Notes under the pieces: generated by a model
The model's database searches: none
Told to the model about the DNA's origin: nothing
The model's input: only the letters and a program-made list of their open reading frames with translations
Sequence record: ON210144.1
DNA from: Escherichia phage EEc2
Direction: 5' to 3' (one strand)
Length of the DNA stretch: 44,883 bases
Translations under genes and position numbers: made by a program
Shown here: positions 611 to 6,004 of the stretch, piece after piece
How positions within the stretch are numbered: position 1 is the first letter of the stretch
Layout: each line of letters begins with the position of its first letter

Positions 611-639
611 TTGACAAGATAATCTTAGTGTAATACTAT
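611..639 (+). promoter_or_regulatory. Candidate host sigma70 promoter (TTGACA, 17 bp spacer, TACTAT)
   Basis: Perfect -35 hexamer at 611-616 and 4/6 -10 match at 634-639, upstream of the first early genes. Pattern match only. Confidence 0.3.
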
Positions 640-711: not shown

Positions 712-727
712 GCTCTTTAACAATTTG
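712..727 (+). repeat. Conserved early intergenic box GCTCTTTAACAATTTG, copy 1
   Basis: One of three near-identical 16-mers (712, 1246, 1444), each in an early intergenic gap. Confidence 0.6.
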
Positions 728-782
728 CTTAGTGTAACCTATGTATGCCGTGGTCAATTACTTATTGAATGAGGAATTAACT

Positions 783-965
783 ATGACATTAAACAACCGT
801 GAACTATCCGTTCTCTTCACTCTGTTATGCTATATGATTCGTAACAACGAATTACTTACAGATGACGAACTGGCCTTGTATCACCGCTTTATTAACGAAG
901 GTTGGACCGATACAGTTAACCAGAAACGTGACTTGATGGAGGAGTTAAGCAATGTATCAGCATGA
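783..965 (+). CDS. Hypothetical early protein (60 aa)
   Basis: ATG at 783 has GAGGA 7 nt upstream; the in-frame ATG at 741 used by the ORF track has no SD. No recognisable motif. Confidence 0.45.
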   Translation: MTLNNRELSVLFTLLCYMIRNNELLTDDELALYHRFINEGWTDTVNQKRDLMEELSNVSA

Positions 966-1176
966 GGTTTTCTTTGAGTCAGCTAGTGAAGCTATCCGCT
1001 TCCATGATGATATGATGCAAGCTGGCGTAGGTGTTGATGTGTATCACTATTTGATAGATTACGACACTGAATATCACCGAGTTACCTTAGTATCTGAGTA
1101 TGACAACCAAGTCATTACTGAGTATCTAGGTAGTGAAGATTATGATTACGATGAAGTAATCACGACAAATCTCTAA
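952..1176 (+). CDS. Hypothetical small acidic early protein (74 aa, D/E/Y-rich)
   Basis: ATG with GGAGG 9 nt upstream; 14-nt overlap with previous ORF. Strongly acidic composition. Confidence 0.5.
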   Translation: MYQHEVFFESASEAIRFHDDMMQAGVGVDVYHYLIDYDTEYHRVTLVSEYDNQVITEYLGSEDYDYDEVITTNL

Positions 1177-1184
1177 ATTAACTA

Positions 1185-1213
1185 TTGACAGCCACGGCAT
1201 ACAAGGTTACATT
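1185..1213 (+). promoter_or_regulatory. Candidate host sigma70 promoter (TTGACA, 17 bp spacer, TACATT)
   Basis: Perfect -35 at 1185-1190 and 4/6 -10 at 1208-1213 in an early intergenic region. Confidence 0.3.
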
Positions 1214-1245
1214 AAGCACATAGCCGATAGGCAACGCTCTTTAAC

Positions 1246-1261
1246 AATCTGGTTTGTGTCT
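1246..1261 (+). repeat. Conserved early intergenic box GCTCTTTAACAATCTG, copy 2
   Basis: 15/16 identical to copies 1 and 3; lies between two early ORFs. Confidence 0.6.
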
Positions 1262-1290
1262 TGATAGGCTAACTAACTAAGGTAATTATT

Positions 1291-1401
1291 ATGAAAGGTT
1301 TAATTTGTGTAGAACGTATGGTCAATGGTAAACTTGAAATTTTACCACTGGAAAACCAATCTAGCTTCAAAGAGTGGTATGGCTGTTTCTCACTGATTTA
1401 A
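1291..1401 (+). CDS. Hypothetical small early protein (36 aa)
   Basis: ATG with AAGG upstream; translates MKGLICVERMVNGKLEILPLENQSSFKEWYGCFSLI. Below the ORF-track size cut-off. Confidence 0.3.
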   Translation: MKGLICVERMVNGKLEILPLENQSSFKEWYGCFSLI

Positions 1402-1443
1402 TGTAAAGGCTGGCACTAGTCAGCCTATCAAGGCGCAAACCAA

Positions 1444-1459
1444 GCTCTTTAACAATTTG
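1444..1459 (+). repeat. Conserved early intergenic box GCTCTTTAACAATTTG, copy 3
   Basis: Identical to copy 1; flanked by inverted repeat CCTATC...GATAGG and lies upstream of ocr. Confidence 0.6.
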
Positions 1460-1552
1460 GGTGGTAGCTTCTTAGTCTGGATAGGTTAAACCTAGGAGAT
1501 TCTCTTGAGTCTCCTATAATGTAACCTAACTAACTAAATGAGGATTAATAAC

Positions 1553-1906
1553 ATGGCTATGTCTAATATGACTTACTCTCAGGTTTACAACACCGCTCAT
1601 GCTGCATTAGTTGAACGTATCTGGAATGATGATATTGATTGTATCGATAACGCACATGATGCAATCCATGAGGTAGCGGACAGTGCTGTACCAATCTATT
1701 ATGCTGACATCTTCTCAGTGATGGCGAGTGAAGGTATTGATCACTTCTTCGAAGACTCCGGCCTGATGCCAGATACTAAGGATGTAACGGTCGTACTACA
1801 AGCCCGTATTTATGAACAACTCACCATTGATTTATGGGAACGTGTTCAAGATATGATTGTTGCGTACACCACTTACGCTGAGTATTCAGAAGAAGAGGAA
1901 GAATAA
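1553..1906 (+). CDS. ocr: Ocr-like DNA-mimic anti-restriction protein (T7 gp0.3 homolog)
   Basis: Starts MAMSNMTY and carries HDAIH...[19 protein letters not shown]...[13 protein letters not shown]...[15 protein letters not shown] plus an acidic tail, matching T7 Ocr as I recall it; 117 aa. SD GAGGA upstream of ATG 1553. Confidence 0.9.
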
Positions 1907-1907
1907 G

Positions 1908-2021
1908 ATGGAAAAGCTATACAACTTCATCTTTTCAGACGGTGTAACCCTGAAGTGTTCCCTACGATTCGCACAAATTCGTGAGGAAGTACTAGGCACT
2001 ACATACAAACTATTTAGCTGA
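1908..2021 (+). CDS. Hypothetical small early protein (37 aa)
   Basis: ATG 2 nt after the ocr stop with GAGGAAG upstream; translates MEKLYNFIFSDGVTLKCSLRFAQIREEVLGTTYKLFS. Confidence 0.3.
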   Translation: MEKLYNFIFSDGVTLKCSLRFAQIREEVLGTTYKLFS

Positions 2022-2032
2022 CACTATAAGAG
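2012..2032 (+). promoter_or_regulatory. Phage-type promoter variant P0 (ATTTAGCTGACACTATAAGAG)
   Basis: 17/21 match to the window consensus; TATAAG replaces TATAGA at the start site. Lies in the early region upstream of the 2098 gene. Confidence 0.45.
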
Positions 2033-2097
2033 AAGGCTTAACAAGGCGTTACTAAGGTAGCGCCTGATTAAACTTTCACTTACTAGGAGTTAAGACT

Positions 2098-2325
2098 ATG
2101 GATTTAGATAGCATCATTATGGCATTTGCTCTTATTGGCTTAAGCTGGTGCTCCTATCACCTTTACCGTGAGTTCTTATTTGATAAAGCTAAACGCAAAC
2201 TAAGAAAGGAAGGCGGTAATTACCTTCGTTTGAGGGGTGGCTTAGTCGAATACATTGCACCTAACGGCAGGGAATGCGCCATTAACAAAGATGCATTTAT
2301 AGAGACGTGGCATTACATCAAGTAA
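2098..2325 (+). CDS. Hypothetical early protein with N-terminal hydrophobic segment (75 aa)
   Basis: ATG with TAGGAG upstream; N-terminus IIMAFALIGLSW is hydrophobic. Confidence 0.5.
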   Translation: MDLDSIIMAFALIGLSWCSYHLYREFLFDKAKRKLRKEGGNYLRLRGGLVEYIAPNGRECAINKDAFIETWHYIK

Positions 2326-2389
2326 CTAGCCTATAGCCTGCCTGCGTGGGCTATGTGATATTTACTTATCATTATATAAGGTGACTATT

Positions 2390-3274
2390 ATGACTACTGA
2401 AAACATCCTCCTGTCTGTCCGTGAAGCTGCAACTGCTGAGATTAAGCAGCATTTGGATAATATCGGCACTTCTTACATCAAAGTTGGCGCTTGTCTGAAT
2501 GAATTGCGCGGTGATTTCGAAGGCCAAAAAGACTTTTTAGCTTATGTAGAATCAGAGTTCGGCATCAAGAAAGCACAATGCTACAAGCTGATGAGTGTAG
2601 CCCGTGTCTTTGAAGGAGACGAACGCTTTAAAGGTGTGGCTATGCGTGTAATGCTGGCACTCGTTCCTTTCGCTGATGAGAATATAATCATGGAGAAGGC
2701 CGCAGAACTCGCCGCAGATGGCAAGCTGGACACTAATGCCGTAAATGCCCTGATTGATCCTAAGAAAGAGACAAAGGCCGAGACGGTACAATCTAAGGCT
2801 GAGGCGGTAAAACCGCAGGAGAACGCGACTGAGTCCGCAGAATTACAGGAAATGCAAGCGCCGCAGGTAGTGCCACCCGCGAGCGAGCAGGAGGCCGACG
2901 AATCAGCACCTTGGGAAGAGGAAAGCAAGCCGGAAGCGCCTAAGGTCGCGCCACTGGATAACACGGCTAACACCGAGAGTGCCGCTATTGCTGGCCTTCT
3001 GGCACAAATTAAAGCACTGACCGAGCAATTACAGGCAGCTAATGACCGCATTGCCTCCTTAAGCAGCGCACGCGAAAGCAAGAAAGCAGCCGCTCCTATG
3101 CTGCCGCAATTCAAATCTTCCTGCTTCTATGCTCGCTTAGGTTTAAGCGCTGAGGAGGCAACGAAGAAAACAGCAGTTAACAAGGCACGCCGCGAACTGG
3201 TTAAGCTAGGATACGGCGAAGGCCATGAAGCATGGCCCTTAATCTCTGAGGCAGTAGAAGAATTAACTAAGTAA
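2390..3274 (+). CDS. Hypothetical early protein (294 aa), at the position of T7 gene 0.7 but with no kinase motifs
   Basis: ATG 2390 with AAGG 8 nt upstream (track start 2381 is GTG). Central Ala/Glu/Pro-rich low-complexity region and a C-terminal coiled-coil-like segment. Confidence 0.6.
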   Translation: MTTENILLSVREAATAEIKQHLDNIGTSYIKVGACLNELRGDFEGQKDFLAYVESEFGIKKAQCYKLMSVARVFEGDERFKGVAMRVMLALVPFADENIIMEKAAELAADGKLDTNAVNALIDPKKETKAETVQSKAEAVKPQENATESAELQEMQAPQVVPPASEQEADESAPWEEESKPEAPKVAPLDNTANTESAAIAGLLAQIKALTEQLQAANDRIASLSSARESKKAAAPMLPQFKSSCFYARLGLSAEEATKKTAVNKARRELVKLGYGEGHEAWPLISEAVEELTK

Positions 3275-3337
3275 CCTTATCGGTGGCATCTTCTTAGGTG
3301 TCACCTATTAAGGTTTCTTTCACTAGGAGTAAACAAG

Positions 3338-5965
3338 ATGCAAGACCTACACGCTATTCAACTTCAACTTGAAGAAGAAATGTTTAACGGCGGTATCCGT
3401 CGCTTTGAAGCGGACCAACAACGCCAGATTGCATCCGGTAATGAATCAGACACGGCATGGAATCGCCGCTTATTGTCCGAGTTAATCGCGCCAATGGCTG
3501 AAGGTATTCAGGCATACAAGGAAGAGTATGAAGGTAAAAGAGGCCGTGCACCGCGTGCATTAGCTTTCATTAACTGCGTAGAAAACGAAGTGGCAGCATA
3601 TATCACGATGAAAATCGTTATGGATATGCTGAACACGGATGTAACCTTGCAGGCTATAGCCATGAATGTAGCTGACCGCATTGAGGACCAAGTACGTTTT
3701 AGCAAGCTGGAAGGTCACGCCGCCAAATACTTTGAGAAAGTTAAGAAGTCACTTAAGGCAAGTAAGACTAAATCATATCGCCATGCGCACAACGTAGCGG
3801 TCGTGGCTGAGAAGTCAGTAGCTGACCGTGACGCTGATTTCTCTCGCTGGGAGGCGTGGCCTAAAGATACCTTGCTACAAATTGGTATGACCTTGCTAGA
3901 AATACTGGAAAATAGTGTATTCTTCAATGGTCAGCCTGTCTTTCTTCGCACCTTGCGCACTAATGGTGGCAAGCATGGCGTTTACTACTTACAGACTAGC
4001 GAACACGTGGGTGAATGGATAACTGCATTTAAAGAGCACGTAGCTCAGCTGAGTCCAGCCTATGCACCTTGCGTTATTCCTCCGCGTCCGTGGGTTTCTC
4101 CGTTTAATGGTGGCTTTCACACCGAGAAGGTGGCAAGTCGCATCCGTCTAGTAAAAGGTAACCGTGAGCACGTCCGTAAGCTGACTAAAAAGCAAATGCC
4201 AGCGGTTTATAAGGCTGTTAATGCATTGCAAGCCACTAAGTGGCAGGTTAACAAGGAAGTATTGCAGGTAGTAGAAGATGTTATTCGTCTAGACCTCGGT
4301 TATGGTGTACCTTCCTTTAAGCCGCTCATTGACCGCGAGAACAAACCAGCTAACCCTGTTCCTCTTGAGTTCCAACACCTGCGAGGCCGTGAACTGAAAG
4401 AGATGCTAACACCGGAGCAATGGCAGGCCTTCATCAACTGGAAGGGTGAATGTACTAAACTGTATACCGCTGAGACTAAGCGCGGCAGCAAGTCGGCGGC
4501 GACCGTCCGCATGGTAGGACAGGCCCGTAAATACAGCCAGTTTGACGCTATTTATTTTGTATATGCACTGGATAGCCGTTCACGCGTTTATGCGCAATCT
4601 AGCACGCTCTCGCCGCAATCAAACGACTTAGGCAAGGCATTGCTCCGTTTTACCGAAGGGCAGCGTCTTGATAGCGCTGAGGCGCTTAAGTGGTTTTTGG
4701 TGAACGGGGCGAATAACTGGGGTTGGGATAAGAAAACTTTTGACGTGCGCACCTCTAACGTGCTGGATGGCGAATTTCAAGACATGTGCCGCGACATTGC
4801 AGCCGATCCGCTGACCTTCACTCAATGGGTAAATGCTGATTCCCCTTACGGCTTCCTTGCATGGTGCTTTGAATATGCGCGTTATCTGGATGCACTGGAT
4901 GAAGGCACGCAAGACCAATTCATGACGCACCTACCCGTCCATCAAGACGGTAGTTGCTCTGGTATCCAGCACTATAGCGCGATGTTACGCGATGAAGTAG
5001 GTGCGAAAGCAGTAAACCTTAAGCCTTCTGACTTCCCTCAAGATATTTATGGCGCGGTTGCGCAGGTTGTTATCCAGAAGAATTACGCCTACATGAATGC
5101 AGACGATGCAGAGACTTTCACATCTGGAAGCGTCACACTTACAGGTGCAGAACTGCGTAGCATGGCTAGTGCGTGGGATATGATAGGAATAACTCGCGGA
5201 TTGACCAAAAAGCCCGTAATGACACTACCTTATGGCAGCACACGTCTAACCTGCCGTGAATCAGTGATTGATTATATCGTTGATTTGGAAGAAAAAGAGG
5301 CCCAACGAGCTATTGCGGAAGGGCGTACCGCCAATCCTGTACACCCTTTTGATAATGACCGTAAGGACAGCCTGACACCTAGCGCAGCTTATAACTATAT
5401 GACAGCTTTAATCTGGCCTTCTATTTCGGAAGTGGTTAAAGCTCCTATAGTGGCAATGAAAATGATTCGTCAGCTTGCCCGTTTCGCAGCTAAAAGGAAT
5501 GAAGGCTTAGAGTATACCTTGCCTACTGGCTTCATCTTGCAACAAAAGATTATGGCTACTGATATGCTCCGCGTATCCACTTGCCTGATGGGAGAAATCA
5601 AGATGAGTCTCCAGATTGAAACGGACGTAGTGGATGAAACGGCTATGATGGGCGCTGCTGCTCCTAACTTTGTGCATGGTCATGATGCCAGTCACCTTAT
5701 CTTAACAGTCTGCGACCTTGTTGATAAAGGGATTACATCTATCGCAGTCATTCATGATTCTTTCGGTACTCACGCAGGCCGTACAGCCGATCTTCGTGAT
5801 AGCTTAAGGGCAGAAATGGTGAAGATGTATCAAGGCCGTAATGCCCTGCAAAGCCTGTTAGATGAGCATGAAGAACGCTGGTTAGTAGACACCGGAATCC
5901 AAGTGCCAGAGCAAGGAGAGTTTGACCTTAACGAAATCTTAGTATCTGACTATTGCTTCGCATAA
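3338..5965 (+). CDS. Single-subunit DNA-directed RNA polymerase (T7 gene 1 type), 875 aa
   Basis: Motifs [13 protein letters not shown] and HDSFGT and a C-terminal ...CFA match the T7/SP6 RNAP family. TAGGAG SD upstream. Confidence 0.97.
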
Positions 5966-5973
5966 TATTAATA

Positions 5974-6004
5974 GGCCATTCCTTCGGGAGTGGCCTTTTC
6001 TTTT
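5974..6004 (+). terminator. Rho-independent terminator after the RNAP gene (9-bp stem, UUCG tetraloop, U-run)
   Basis: GGCCATTCC-TTCG-GGAGTGGCC followed by TTTTCTTTT, 9 nt after the RNAP stop. Plausible early terminator for host RNAP. Confidence 0.7.

Follow-up and report, generated by a model that had tools for sequence, protein, structure and literature searches.

The ocr gene of Escherichia phage EEc2, analysed here within a window of 44,883 nucleotides (ON210144.1), very probably belongs to an early operon that is equipped with rrn-type boxA sites and with RNA helices bracketing its genes. Ocr, a small helical protein of high acidity, imitates bent B-form DNA as a dimer. The source phage is a K1-5/SP6-like coliphage (Vectrevirus), a member of the SP6 supergroup rather than of the T7 group. 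Calling the ORF an Ocr is correct but adds nothing new, because an identical protein of phage EEc4 (100% identity) is already annotated in GenBank as 'protein Ocr'. What is new is that the allele has been swapped, that its charge is the lowest of 21 homologues, that it is under purifying selection, and that it lies in a boxA and helix layout (Table 1).

Table 1. Features of the early region, numbered from the first nucleotide of the window
Feature	Position	Strand	Description
sigma-70-like early promoter	611-639	+	TTGACA-17-TACTAT; predicted, 10/12 to consensus
boxA-1	712-727	+	GCTCTTTAACAATTTG, 0 mismatches; before gene 1
helix A 5' strand	726-758	+	pairs with 1184-1218, encloses genes 1 and 2
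gene 1	783-965	+	cassette A cargo; PHROG 9275 or 6403 (genes 1/2), function not assigned
gene 2	952-1176	+	cassette A cargo; K1-5 genes 1 and 2 are homologues of genes 1/2
helix A 3' strand	1184-1218	+	holds promoter TTGACA-17-TACATT
sigma-70-like promoter	1185-1213	+	TTGACA-17-TACATT; predicted; inside helix A 3' strand
boxA-2	1236-1251	+	GCTCTTTAACAATTTG, 1 mismatch; between gene 2 and 36-aa ORF
helix B 5' strand	1250-1275	+	inverted repeat I1, 23/26 complementary; encloses 36-aa ORF
36-aa ORF	1291-1401	+	cassette B cargo; lacking annotation in K1-5 and EEc4
helix B 3' strand	1417-1442	+	pairs with 1250-1275
boxA-3	1444-1459	+	GCTCTTTAACAATTTG, 0 mismatches; 36-aa ORF to ocr, 109 nt upstream of ocr ATG
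long irregular hairpin	1468-1543	+	MFE fold, z -2.8
Shine-Dalgarno (SD) GAGGA	1540-1544	+	8 nt 5' of ocr ATG, read from sequence
ocr ORF	1553-1906, stop included	+	117-aa Ocr/gp0.3-family DNA mimic
gene 4	1908-2021	+	37 aa; begins 1 nt past ocr stop; PHROG 11746
T7-type hairpin and conserved tail	2024-2086	+	before gene 5; fold z -4.8; repeat D3
phage RNA polymerase gene	3338-5965	+	

Every available sequence test places the ORF in the Ocr (T7 gp0.3) family. A phmmer search aligns its product with T7 gp0.3 (PDB 1s7z chain A) without gaps, residues 1-117 against 1-117, with an E-value of 3.4e-41, and 77 of the 117 residues are identical in the pairwise alignment (65.8% for the protein, 64% for the nucleotide sequence). 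The full-length similarity to T7 gp0.3 noted in the initial annotation is thus borne out, at an identity far above the 30% or so that it had set as a lower limit. The protein also scores 146.6 bits against the Pfam profile PF08684 'ocr' (cut-off 25; profile positions 1-100 of 101) and 163.6 bits against PHROG 2568 'ocr-like anti-restriction', the same label that the RefSeq records of K1-5, K1E and SP6 give to the homologous gene. Homologues occur in 571 of 50,697 phage records, 45 of them at least 90% identical. The full-length collinear alignment with a solved chain suggests that the window protein adopts the T7 Ocr fold. As read from the sequence, the ORF opens with the ATG at 1553 and closes with a TAA at 1904-1906. 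Its start is preceded by a Shine-Dalgarno motif, of which the GAGG is invariant across the aligned ocr leaders (n=9). An in-frame ATG at 1538 would lengthen the protein; it overlaps GAGGA and has no Shine-Dalgarno of its own.

The two proteins, each of 117 residues, share a strong acidity and a scarcity of basic residues, and they differ in the degree of this acidity. The window Ocr has 25 D/E and 4 K/R (net -21), T7 Ocr 34 D/E and 6 K/R (net -28), and among the 21 homologues compared the former has the lowest acidity, the others having 28-38 D/E. Its acidic surface pattern is therefore thinned but not lost, with 23 D/E standing at positions that are acidic in T7 Ocr, and the total of 25 clearly exceeds the 15 or so acidic residues that are reported to be conserved in the family (PMC3439906). 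Eleven of the 34 acidic positions of T7 Ocr have been replaced (D12N, E16A, D29C, D32N, E64F, D96R, E98Q, E103A, E106T, E107Y and E110Y, in mature numbering), and two others have been gained. The losses cluster in helix 1, the C-terminal helix and the tail. The central acidic block of T7 Ocr, aa59-91, which is reported as crucial for anti-restriction (PMC3439906), keeps seven of its eight acidic residues (E59, D62, E66, D67, D73, D76 and E87), E64 being changed to F. In Met1 numbering, the two proteins are identical at residues 49-64, 66-78 and 82-96. F54, which is needed for dimerisation (PMC9122126), is kept within a 15-residue segment that is the same as in T7.

It is established that T7 Ocr blocks type I restriction-modification (R-M) and BREX (PMC9122126; PMC3439906), and by homology the window allele would also be expected to block type I R-M, and BREX through PglX. 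Its action would let the unmodified phage genome escape cleavage during entry. That the host range takes in strains with type I R-M or BREX, as was first proposed from the presence of the gene, is a reasonable inference. T7 Ocr stays active after any single one of the group mutations Mut1, Mut2 and Mut4 or of the deletions Ocr99 and Ocr109 (PMC3439906), and most losses in the window Ocr fall within the regions that these variants cover. The combinations of group mutations that were tested, which neutralise 10-16 residues in each monomer, cost the protein its activity in one or more in-vivo assays (PMC3439906), and full potency of the window allele should therefore not be assumed.

It could be argued that this Ocr is a derivative whose job has shifted, either to the evasion of Ocr-sensing defences of the PARIS type or to altered targets such as host RNA polymerase or other DNA-binding proteins, so that it would not be a straightforward EcoKI or BREX blocker. 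Its acidic content, lowest of the homologues compared, and the concentration of the losses in helix 1 and the C-terminal part would fit such a change. So would the precise replacement of the ORF, which leaves two alleles of 50% identity circulating within one genus, a pattern expected of an arms-race locus. A lone F54V change in Ocr evades PARIS while inhibition of EcoKI is kept (PMC9122126), and T7 Ocr is described as binding host RNA polymerase as well (PMC7064336). However, F54 is unchanged here, the central block is nearly complete, T7 Ocr tolerates the single loss of each peripheral charge group, and charge reduction has no known link to PARIS escape. A shifted job is therefore considered unlikely; it is compatible with an Ocr-family gene in a boxA-bearing operon, and does not exclude it. 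The window contains no tRNA genes, which would be relevant to PARIS counter-defence.

The history of the locus is that of a replaced allele. The window Ocr is 66% identical to T7 Ocr and 50% to the Ocr of K1-5 and K1E, and it groups with the T7/SP6-type sequences and not with those of K1-5/K1E, whereas the DNA flanking the gene is 96-100% identical to K1-5. Because the protein is closer to that of T7 while the flanks are those of K1-5, the sequence comparison indicates that the ocr ORF was replaced by recombination between near-identical phages. Gp3 of K1-5 and K1E occupies the same slot, from the boxA-3 leader to gene 4, and carries the same 'ocr-like anti-restriction' label; it has 108-110 aa, and its N-terminus (MERNANAYY...) and C-terminus differ from those of the window Ocr. 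Recent transfer of the gene from a T7-like phage is ruled out by the 64% nucleotide identity and by synonymous differences at 40 of the 77 codons whose residue matches T7, the latter pointing to an old divergence under constraint. Within its own clade the window Ocr shows a dN/dS of 0.02-0.16. The gene is thus under strong purifying selection, and a pseudogene or decaying copy is ruled out. The low-charge allele and the K1-5-type allele form a ready pair for testing how variation in Ocr acts against type I R-M, BREX and PARIS.

The position of ocr in the early region, as originally annotated, agrees with its place between the predicted sigma-70-like promoters and the phage RNA polymerase gene. 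The three 16-bp boxes reported with it are real and conserved, but they do not separate the genes on both sides: all of them lie upstream of ocr, and the intergenic spaces downstream carry another element, a hairpin of the T7 type followed by a conserved tail (repeat D3). The 16-mer is found nowhere else in the 44.9 kb, and all its copies are on the + strand. They contain the 11-nt core GYTCTTTAANA, which is the published gamma-proteobacterial boxA consensus (PMC5725501); this core has three exact matches in the window against 0.27 expected, a number reached in 0 of 100 shuffles. The boxes match the boxA of the E. coli rrn leader at 15 of 16 positions, sharing with it both core and extension (GCTCTTTAACAATTT). 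From this likeness, the three boxes are rrn-type boxA elements, and as such predicted NusB-NusE loading sites and not generic gene separators. All of them stand downstream of the first predicted promoter, in untranslated RNA; boxA-2 and boxA-3 are downstream of the second promoter as well. The untranslated spacers of the early transcript measure 115-151 nt, and each long one holds one boxA.

The element is shared beyond this phage. In T7 the same 17-mer stands between promoter A3 and gene 0.3, and boxA precedes ocr by 106-114 nt at most loci, in the T7-like and the SP6-like (K1-5-like) groups alike. A scan of IMG/VR for the 16-mer, which served to add SP6-like loci, returned at least 120 stretches; among the matches listed, strong downstream pairing partners cluster in the SP6-like group. 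The boxA and the helices are unannotated in every record examined. Within the titles, abstracts and term counts of the literature surveyed on boxA with T7, SP6/K1-5, Ocr or the early region, a scope outside which the SP6/K1-5 genome papers fell, none describes boxA there. The sequence identity of the boxes suggests that in most loci examined, T7-like and SP6-like, ocr expression is tied to the host rRNA antitermination machinery, with the boxA sites probably recruiting NusB/NusE/SuhB and conferring antitermination.

Two long-range helices covary around the early genes. Helix A, of 28-32 bp, has a duplex dG of -47.5, against -16.8 for shuffles, and is present in the global MFE fold; 98.2% of its cells are paired among 10 distinct sequences (slid controls, 26-38%). 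Helix B, of 21+4 bp, has a duplex dG of -43, and the fold of cassette B gives a z of -4.0; here 91.9% of the cells are paired among 11 sequences (slid controls, 23-44%). Each helix contains 5 pairs with compensatory changes, and in neither case did any of 500 shuffles reach the observed values. The strand bias of helix B is only modest, with 24 G-U cells against 12 A-C cells. Both helices are kept in all SP6-like loci examined, around cargo that varies in length from 208 to 852 nt. Both are likely RNase III substrates. Part of the conservation of the helix A 3' strand may act at the DNA level, because a promoter-like TTGACA/TACATT pair lies there, which three diverged versions of this arm have retained. 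A search of the whole window against Rfam at gathering thresholds gave no match.

The early genes of T7 are said, in the account given by Dunn and Studier in 1983, to be separated by local RNase III hairpins. This raises the possibility that the boxes are simply the loops or flanks of ordinary T7-type hairpins and have no relation to Nus factors. Hairpins of that type do occur ahead of gene 5 and of the RNA polymerase gene, and a local hairpin lies between boxA-3 and ocr. Yet folds centred on the three boxes are no better than shuffles (z 0.17, 0.87 and -1.22), which rules out a local hairpin centred on each of them, the long-range pairing is far stronger (z -4.0 to -5.3) and covaries, and a 15/16 match to rrn boxA, repeated three times, would be left unexplained. 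This possibility is accordingly judged very remote.

The frame of cassette B (box, arm, SD...arm, next box) is itself conserved, and at least seven versions of it carry unrelated ORFs as cargo. In the window the cargo is the 36-aa ORF, which gave no match in PHROG and Pfam searches and has an identical counterpart in K1-5; in other phages the frame holds unrelated ORFs of 37-95 aa. In L023 the order of the cassettes is swapped, and K1E has two B-type cassettes in tandem. PHROGs 9275 and 6403 are the assignments of early genes 1 and 2. If the region mimics an rRNA operon, the swapped small cargo genes would probably be anti-defence or host-takeover genes.

Such exchange could also mean that the boxes, together with the inverted repeats on either side of them, act as DNA, being blocks of homology or the ends of mobile cassettes, with the RNA structure as a by-product. 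Besides the constancy of the frame around unrelated cargo and the rearrangements in L023 and K1E, this would account for the swapping of gene 5, which has been exchanged between identical flanks just as the ocr ORF has. However, the box reproduces a host RNA signal exactly and is always on the transcribed strand, and the pairing of the arms is kept by two-sided compensatory changes (5 pairs per helix) and by G-U wobble, a compensation that DNA homology alone would not need. As the sole explanation, a role in DNA is thus judged improbable, although the RNA and DNA roles are not mutually exclusive, because conserved RNA elements would also anchor recombination.

The closest known counterpart of boxA sites combined with gene-bracketing helices is the rrn operon, in which boxA is followed by leader-trailer helices of 25-40 bp that are cut by RNase III (PMC10250234). 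The helices of E. coli rrn measure 25-40 bp for 16S and 27 bp for 23S (PMC10250234), and those of the phage 25-32 bp. In both systems one boxA lies just 5' of each long-range helix, and the helices bracket a cargo and covary. The cargo is rRNA in one case and small protein-coding genes in the other. Unlike E. coli rrn, the phage early region shows no obvious boxB hairpin or conserved boxC, and its third unit closes with a local hairpin instead of a bracketing helix. It is tentatively proposed, with a little less than even confidence, that the early region is a mimic of the rRNA operon, made of boxA-headed cassettes, each with a covarying leader-trailer helix, its own Shine-Dalgarno and swappable, unrelated small genes, of which ocr is the last cargo.

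The proposed model is as follows. Within the early operon of this K1-5/SP6-like phage, ocr would be transcribed by the host RNA polymerase, which the boxA sites would turn into a fast, Rho-resistant, rrn-like antitermination complex. The sequence just 3' of boxA-1 and of boxA-2 pairs with that just 5' of the next box, and the resulting leader-trailer-type helices around the cargo genes are likely to be cut by RNase III; after boxA-3 come a local hairpin resembling R0.3 and then ocr. The net result would be a rapid, termination-proof supply and processing of anti-defence mRNAs, ahead of the exposure of the remaining genome. If the region does mimic an rRNA operon, a boxA tethered to the polymerase would favour the formation of the long-range helices for excision by RNase III, and fast, Rho-proof, Nus-modified transcription of the entering DNA would in turn speed up genome entry.

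The last unit resembles the leader of T7 gp0.3, likewise an early gene read by the host RNA polymerase, with a boxA some 110 nt ahead of it and a hairpin after the boxA. In the window, ocr is not the first gene: it comes after two cassettes delimited by boxA, which together hold three or four small ORFs. The window leader can be aligned with the T7 leader beyond boxA, and folds of the T7 and SP6 leaders place a hairpin at the same relative position. The hairpin between boxA-3 and ocr may therefore correspond in position to the R0.3 RNase III site of T7. For the leaders of 9 phages, aligned from boxA to ocr, RNAalifold found no consensus structure because the MAFFT alignment used is not structural; each leader does fold on its own. 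The RNase III sites of T7 are reportedly local hairpins, whereas the first two processing-type structures of the window arise by long-range pairing and have genes inside them. A candidate sigma-70 promoter just upstream of ocr (TTGAGT...TATAAT, about 1503-1520) was rejected, its hexamers being 4 nt apart and the promoter scan making no call there.

Should the proposed model hold, it would explain how these phages express anti-defence genes immediately from the entering genome, and it would supply a rule, 'boxA + arm + SD...arm + boxA', for harvesting candidate anti-defence genes. Provided that the region is a mimic of the rRNA operon, such candidates by association would include genes 1 and 2, the 36-aa ORF and the genes that take their place in relatives. 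The gene-bracketing helices define a reusable expression frame with hypervariable cargo, and, if confirmed, they would represent a natural non-ribosomal system for Nus-assisted long-range RNA folding.

The window has no terminal repeat at its right end. The hairpins before gene 5 and before the RNA polymerase gene have in common the T7-like 3' tail ..CTTTCACT.ACTAGGAG, as in T7 R0.3, R0.5 and R1, and the first of them is a putative RNase III-like site, which overlaps a sequence at 2012-2032 that resembles a phage promoter. Along the + strand, a strong terminator-like hairpin first occurs at 5973-5996.

The first 3.4 kb of the window matches Vectrevirus (SP6 supergroup, Autographiviridae, Molineuxvirinae), with 96.6% identity to phage EEc4 along all of these 3.4 kb and with about 93% to K1-5, and the order of the ORFs, in which small early genes are followed by the RNA polymerase gene, agrees with this placement. 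The 16-bp sequence GCTCTTTAACAATTTG occurs three times there, always on the + strand and once with one mismatch, and the 44.9 kb hold no fourth copy. The gamma-proteobacterial boxA consensus is GYTCTTTAANA (Baniulyte et al. 2017, PMC5725501), which is matched three times in the window against 0.27 expected. The boxA of the E. coli rrn leader, GCTCTTTAACAATTTA, is identical to the window box at 15 of 16 positions, and that of the E. coli 16S–23S spacer likewise fits the consensus. By sequence match, the 16-bp boxes are thus boxA of the rrn type. The initial annotation had described three conserved boxes separating the early genes around ocr; three copies were indeed found, one in each of three long untranslated spacers (about 137 nt, 115 nt and 151 nt, the first counted to gene 1 from a start near 646 that is estimated from a predicted promoter at 611-639), but the shorter spacers downstream (63-76 nt) lack boxA and carry T7-type hairpins in its place. 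A conserved tail, ATTAA.(C/G)TTTC..CACT.ACTAGGAGT, follows these hairpins, which differ from the boxA units and probably represent sites of the RNase III type. Over the remainder of the window, promoter-like sites of the SP6 phage type are scattered; the leftmost of them overlaps the gene 4 stop codon as well as the base of the hairpin that follows. Gene 6, conserved in SP6, K1-5 and Era103, encodes the largest uncharacterised early protein, with no Pfam match and a sole PHROG match to 4571, of unknown function; it adjoins the RNA polymerase gene, in the slot of the T7 protein kinase gene 0.7.

Features of the early region and the RNA polymerase gene in the window
Feature	Position	Strand	Remarks
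boxA-1	712-727	+	GCTCTTTAACAATTTG
boxA-2	1236-1251	+	one mismatch
boxA-3	1444-1459	+	
Helix A	726-758 with 1184-1218		directly after boxA-1 and directly before boxA-2; encloses genes 1 and 2 (cassette A)
Sigma-70-like promoter	1185-1213	+	TTGACA-17-TACATT; inside the 3' strand of helix A
Helix B	1250-1275 with 1417-1442		after boxA-2 and before boxA-3; encloses the 36-aa ORF (cassette B)
36-aa ORF	1291-1401	+	MKGLICVERMVNGK...; with Shine-Dalgarno; inside cassette B
Shine-Dalgarno of ocr	8 nt 5' of the ATG		GAGGA
ocr	1553-1906	+	ATG 1553, TAA 1904-1906
SP6-type promoter-like site, leftmost	2012-2032	+	ATTTAGCTGACACTATAAGAG; end of gene 4
T7-type hairpin	2024-2086	+	before gene 5
Gene 5	2098-2325		
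T7-type hairpin	2332-2360	+	before gene 6; weaker
Gene 6	2390-3274	+	294 aa
T7-type hairpin	3275-3313	+	before the RNA polymerase gene
RNA polymerase gene	3338-5965		single-subunit, 875 aa; from the ORF map
Terminator-like hairpin	5973-5996		strong; follows the RNA polymerase gene

Between the boxes, two helices bracket the early genes. The duplexes of helix A (28-32 bp) and helix B (25 bp) have energies of -47.5 and -43 kcal/mol, where shuffled partners reach about -16 to -17, and the fold z-scores are -5.3 for the whole 640-1560 RNA and -4.0 for cassette B alone. Local folds centred on the boxes were rejected, their z-scores (0.17, 0.87 and -1.22) being no better than those of shuffles. Both pairings are also found in K1-5, K1E, SP6 and nine metagenomic relatives, around cargo of 208 to 852 nt. 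For helix A, 98.2% of cells are paired, with five pairs changed on both sides and slid controls at 26-38%; for helix B the figure is 91.9%, with five compensatory pairs and slid controls at 23-44%, and in neither case did any of 500 shuffles score as high. The non-Watson-Crick cells of helix B comprise 24 G-U vs 12 A-C, a modest bias towards + strand RNA. Transcripts from the sigma-70-like promoter within helix A would begin about 15 nt 5' of boxA-2. Its TTGACA and TACATT both persist in three divergent forms of the arm, which makes it a probable second early promoter, firing directly into boxA-2.

The boxA of an rrn operon stands ahead of the 5' strand of the leader-trailer helix (25-40 bp for 16S, 27 bp for 23S), a helix that encloses the rRNA and that RNase III cleaves (PMC10250234). 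The phage early region has this layout, boxA and a helix around cargo, twice over, and its array ends, unlike the first two units, in boxA, a local hairpin and ocr. The model proposed here is that NusB–NusE would load on each boxA, that host polymerase so modified would resist Rho in the untranslated stretches and elongate faster, and that the helices would serve as RNase III substrates, freeing stable cassette mRNAs. The boxA sites, the helices and the 36-aa ORF are unannotated in NC_001604, NC_008152, AY370674, AY370673, NC_004831, NC_007637 and ON210145, Rfam has no family matching the boxA and helix elements, and the titles, abstracts and term counts of the literature searched gave no description of boxA for T7-like or SP6-like phages. 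The presence of a boxA in the T7 leader had already been noted. It is this rrn-mimic cassette architecture, rather than the Ocr gene, that merits follow-up. Among the matches listed, four unrelated IMG/VR viral contigs (L132, L143, L101 and L050) carry the boxA 16-mer with a strong complementary partner downstream, 300-830 nt away (dG -39 to -47), so that the design may exist beyond the SP6 group.

The third unit has a counterpart in T7, whose promoter A3 (+1 at 750) and gene 0.3 flank GCTCTTTAACAATCTGG at 813-829; the T7 leader 3' of the box aligns with that of the window (TGG..TAGCT.CTT.AGT), and the Shine-Dalgarno context at its end is identical. Across 30 Ocr-encoding viral contigs and the reference phages, most loci in each of the two groups have a boxA 106-114 nt 5' of where ocr starts, at -112/-114 in T7-like and at -106 to -109 in SP6-like (K1-5-like) loci, and a few loci lack it or have it farther off. 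SP6 itself has a variant with one mismatch at -101, and K1E has no consensus boxA within two mismatches upstream of ocr. In each ocr leader a long hairpin forms at the corresponding position; in T7 this hairpin is the R0.3 RNase III site, which the T7 RefSeq record leaves unannotated.

The frame of cassette B (boxA, 5' arm, Shine-Dalgarno AAGGTRA..ATC-ATG, 3' arm, next boxA) is conserved between SP6-like phages and its cargo is unrelated from one to another, with ORFs of 36, 37, 54, 55, 57, 70 or 95 aa that have no mutual similarity visible by eye. The 36-aa ORF is identical in K1-5, and neither K1-5 nor EEc4 annotates it. Cassette A keeps genes 1 and 2 as a constant core, with variable inserted ORFs. 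In K1E the B-type cassette is present twice, in tandem (1663-2240, genes 2.5 and 2.8), and in an SP6-like relative (L023, 671-1739) a B-type cassette lies ahead of an A-type one, the reverse of the window. Variation extends to single genes: the DNA of the window and K1-5 is 96-100% identical in the flanks 1275-1524 and 1924-2073 and, over precisely the ocr ORF, only 38-68% identical. Gene 5 has the same drop between near-identical K1-5 flanks, and ~1540-1915 and 2098-2325 together have 26-68% nucleotide identity to K1-5. The ocr coding sequence has thus been exchanged between otherwise near-identical phages, and in both ocr and gene 5 a single early ORF has been precisely replaced by another allele. 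Window Ocr is nearer to T7 (65.8%) and SP6 (61.5%) than to gp3 of K1-5 and K1E (50%), proteins of 108-110 aa with termini unlike its own. Such an exchange is expected of an arms-race locus. Cassette variation and these precise swaps together give the early region the look of a series of interchangeable expression slots. Its conserved RNA elements would double as recombination anchors, which makes the RNA and DNA readings compatible, not exclusive.

The Ocr gene itself is an ordinary one and was known before. Its ORF lies exactly where the initial annotation had placed it, and the claimed full-length similarity to T7 gp0.3 was borne out, as all 117 residues align ungapped with the solved structure 1s7z (E 3.4e-41) and 77 of the 117 are identical to T7 Ocr in pairwise alignment (DNA 64%). 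The Pfam 'ocr' score is 146.6 bits, nearly six-fold the threshold of 25, and PHROG 2568, 'ocr-like anti-restriction', is also matched. EEc4 encodes a 100% identical protein (URP75107), annotated 'protein Ocr ... mimics B-form DNA'; the same-slot gene is 'ocr-like anti-restriction' in the RefSeq records of SP6, K1-5 and K1E, the last adding 'inhibitor of host endonucleases'. By tblastn, homologues occur in 571 of 50,697 phage records (45 at 90% identity or more, none at 80-90%, 312 at 60-80%). Synonymous differences in 40 of the 77 codons for T7-identical residues point to an old divergence under constraint, and a recent transfer of ocr was rejected on this ground; dN/dS within the protein's own clade is 0.02-0.16 (codons 1-102).

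The net charge of window Ocr is -21 (25 Asp/Glu, 4 Lys/Arg), that of T7 Ocr -28 (34 and 6); 23 acidic positions are shared, 2 gained and 11 lost (in mature numbering, D12N, E16A, D29C, D32N, E64F, D96R, E98Q, E103A, E106T, E107Y and E110Y), which leaves the lowest acidic content among 21 compared homologues. Affinity for M.EcoKI drops to the level of DNA only after ~16 charges per monomer are neutralised, only about 15 acidic positions are common to Ocr homologues, the crucial block is aa59-91, and the group mutants Mut1, Mut2 and Mut4 and the C-terminal deletions Ocr99 and Ocr109 are still active (Roberts et al. 2012, PMC3439906). F54 is kept in 93% of homologues; F54A abrogates dimerisation, and T7 escapes the Ocr-sensing defence PARIS via F54V (PMC9122126). 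Because window Ocr retains F54 and 7 of the 8 acidic residues of the block, and its remaining losses map to regions individually dispensable in T7 Ocr, it is expected to be an active anti-restriction protein. Its potency is not guaranteed, since the combinations of T7 group mutants that were tested, with 10-16 residues neutralised, showed a loss of activity in one assay or more (PMC3439906). As a speculation, its low acidity could reflect evasion of an Ocr sensor.
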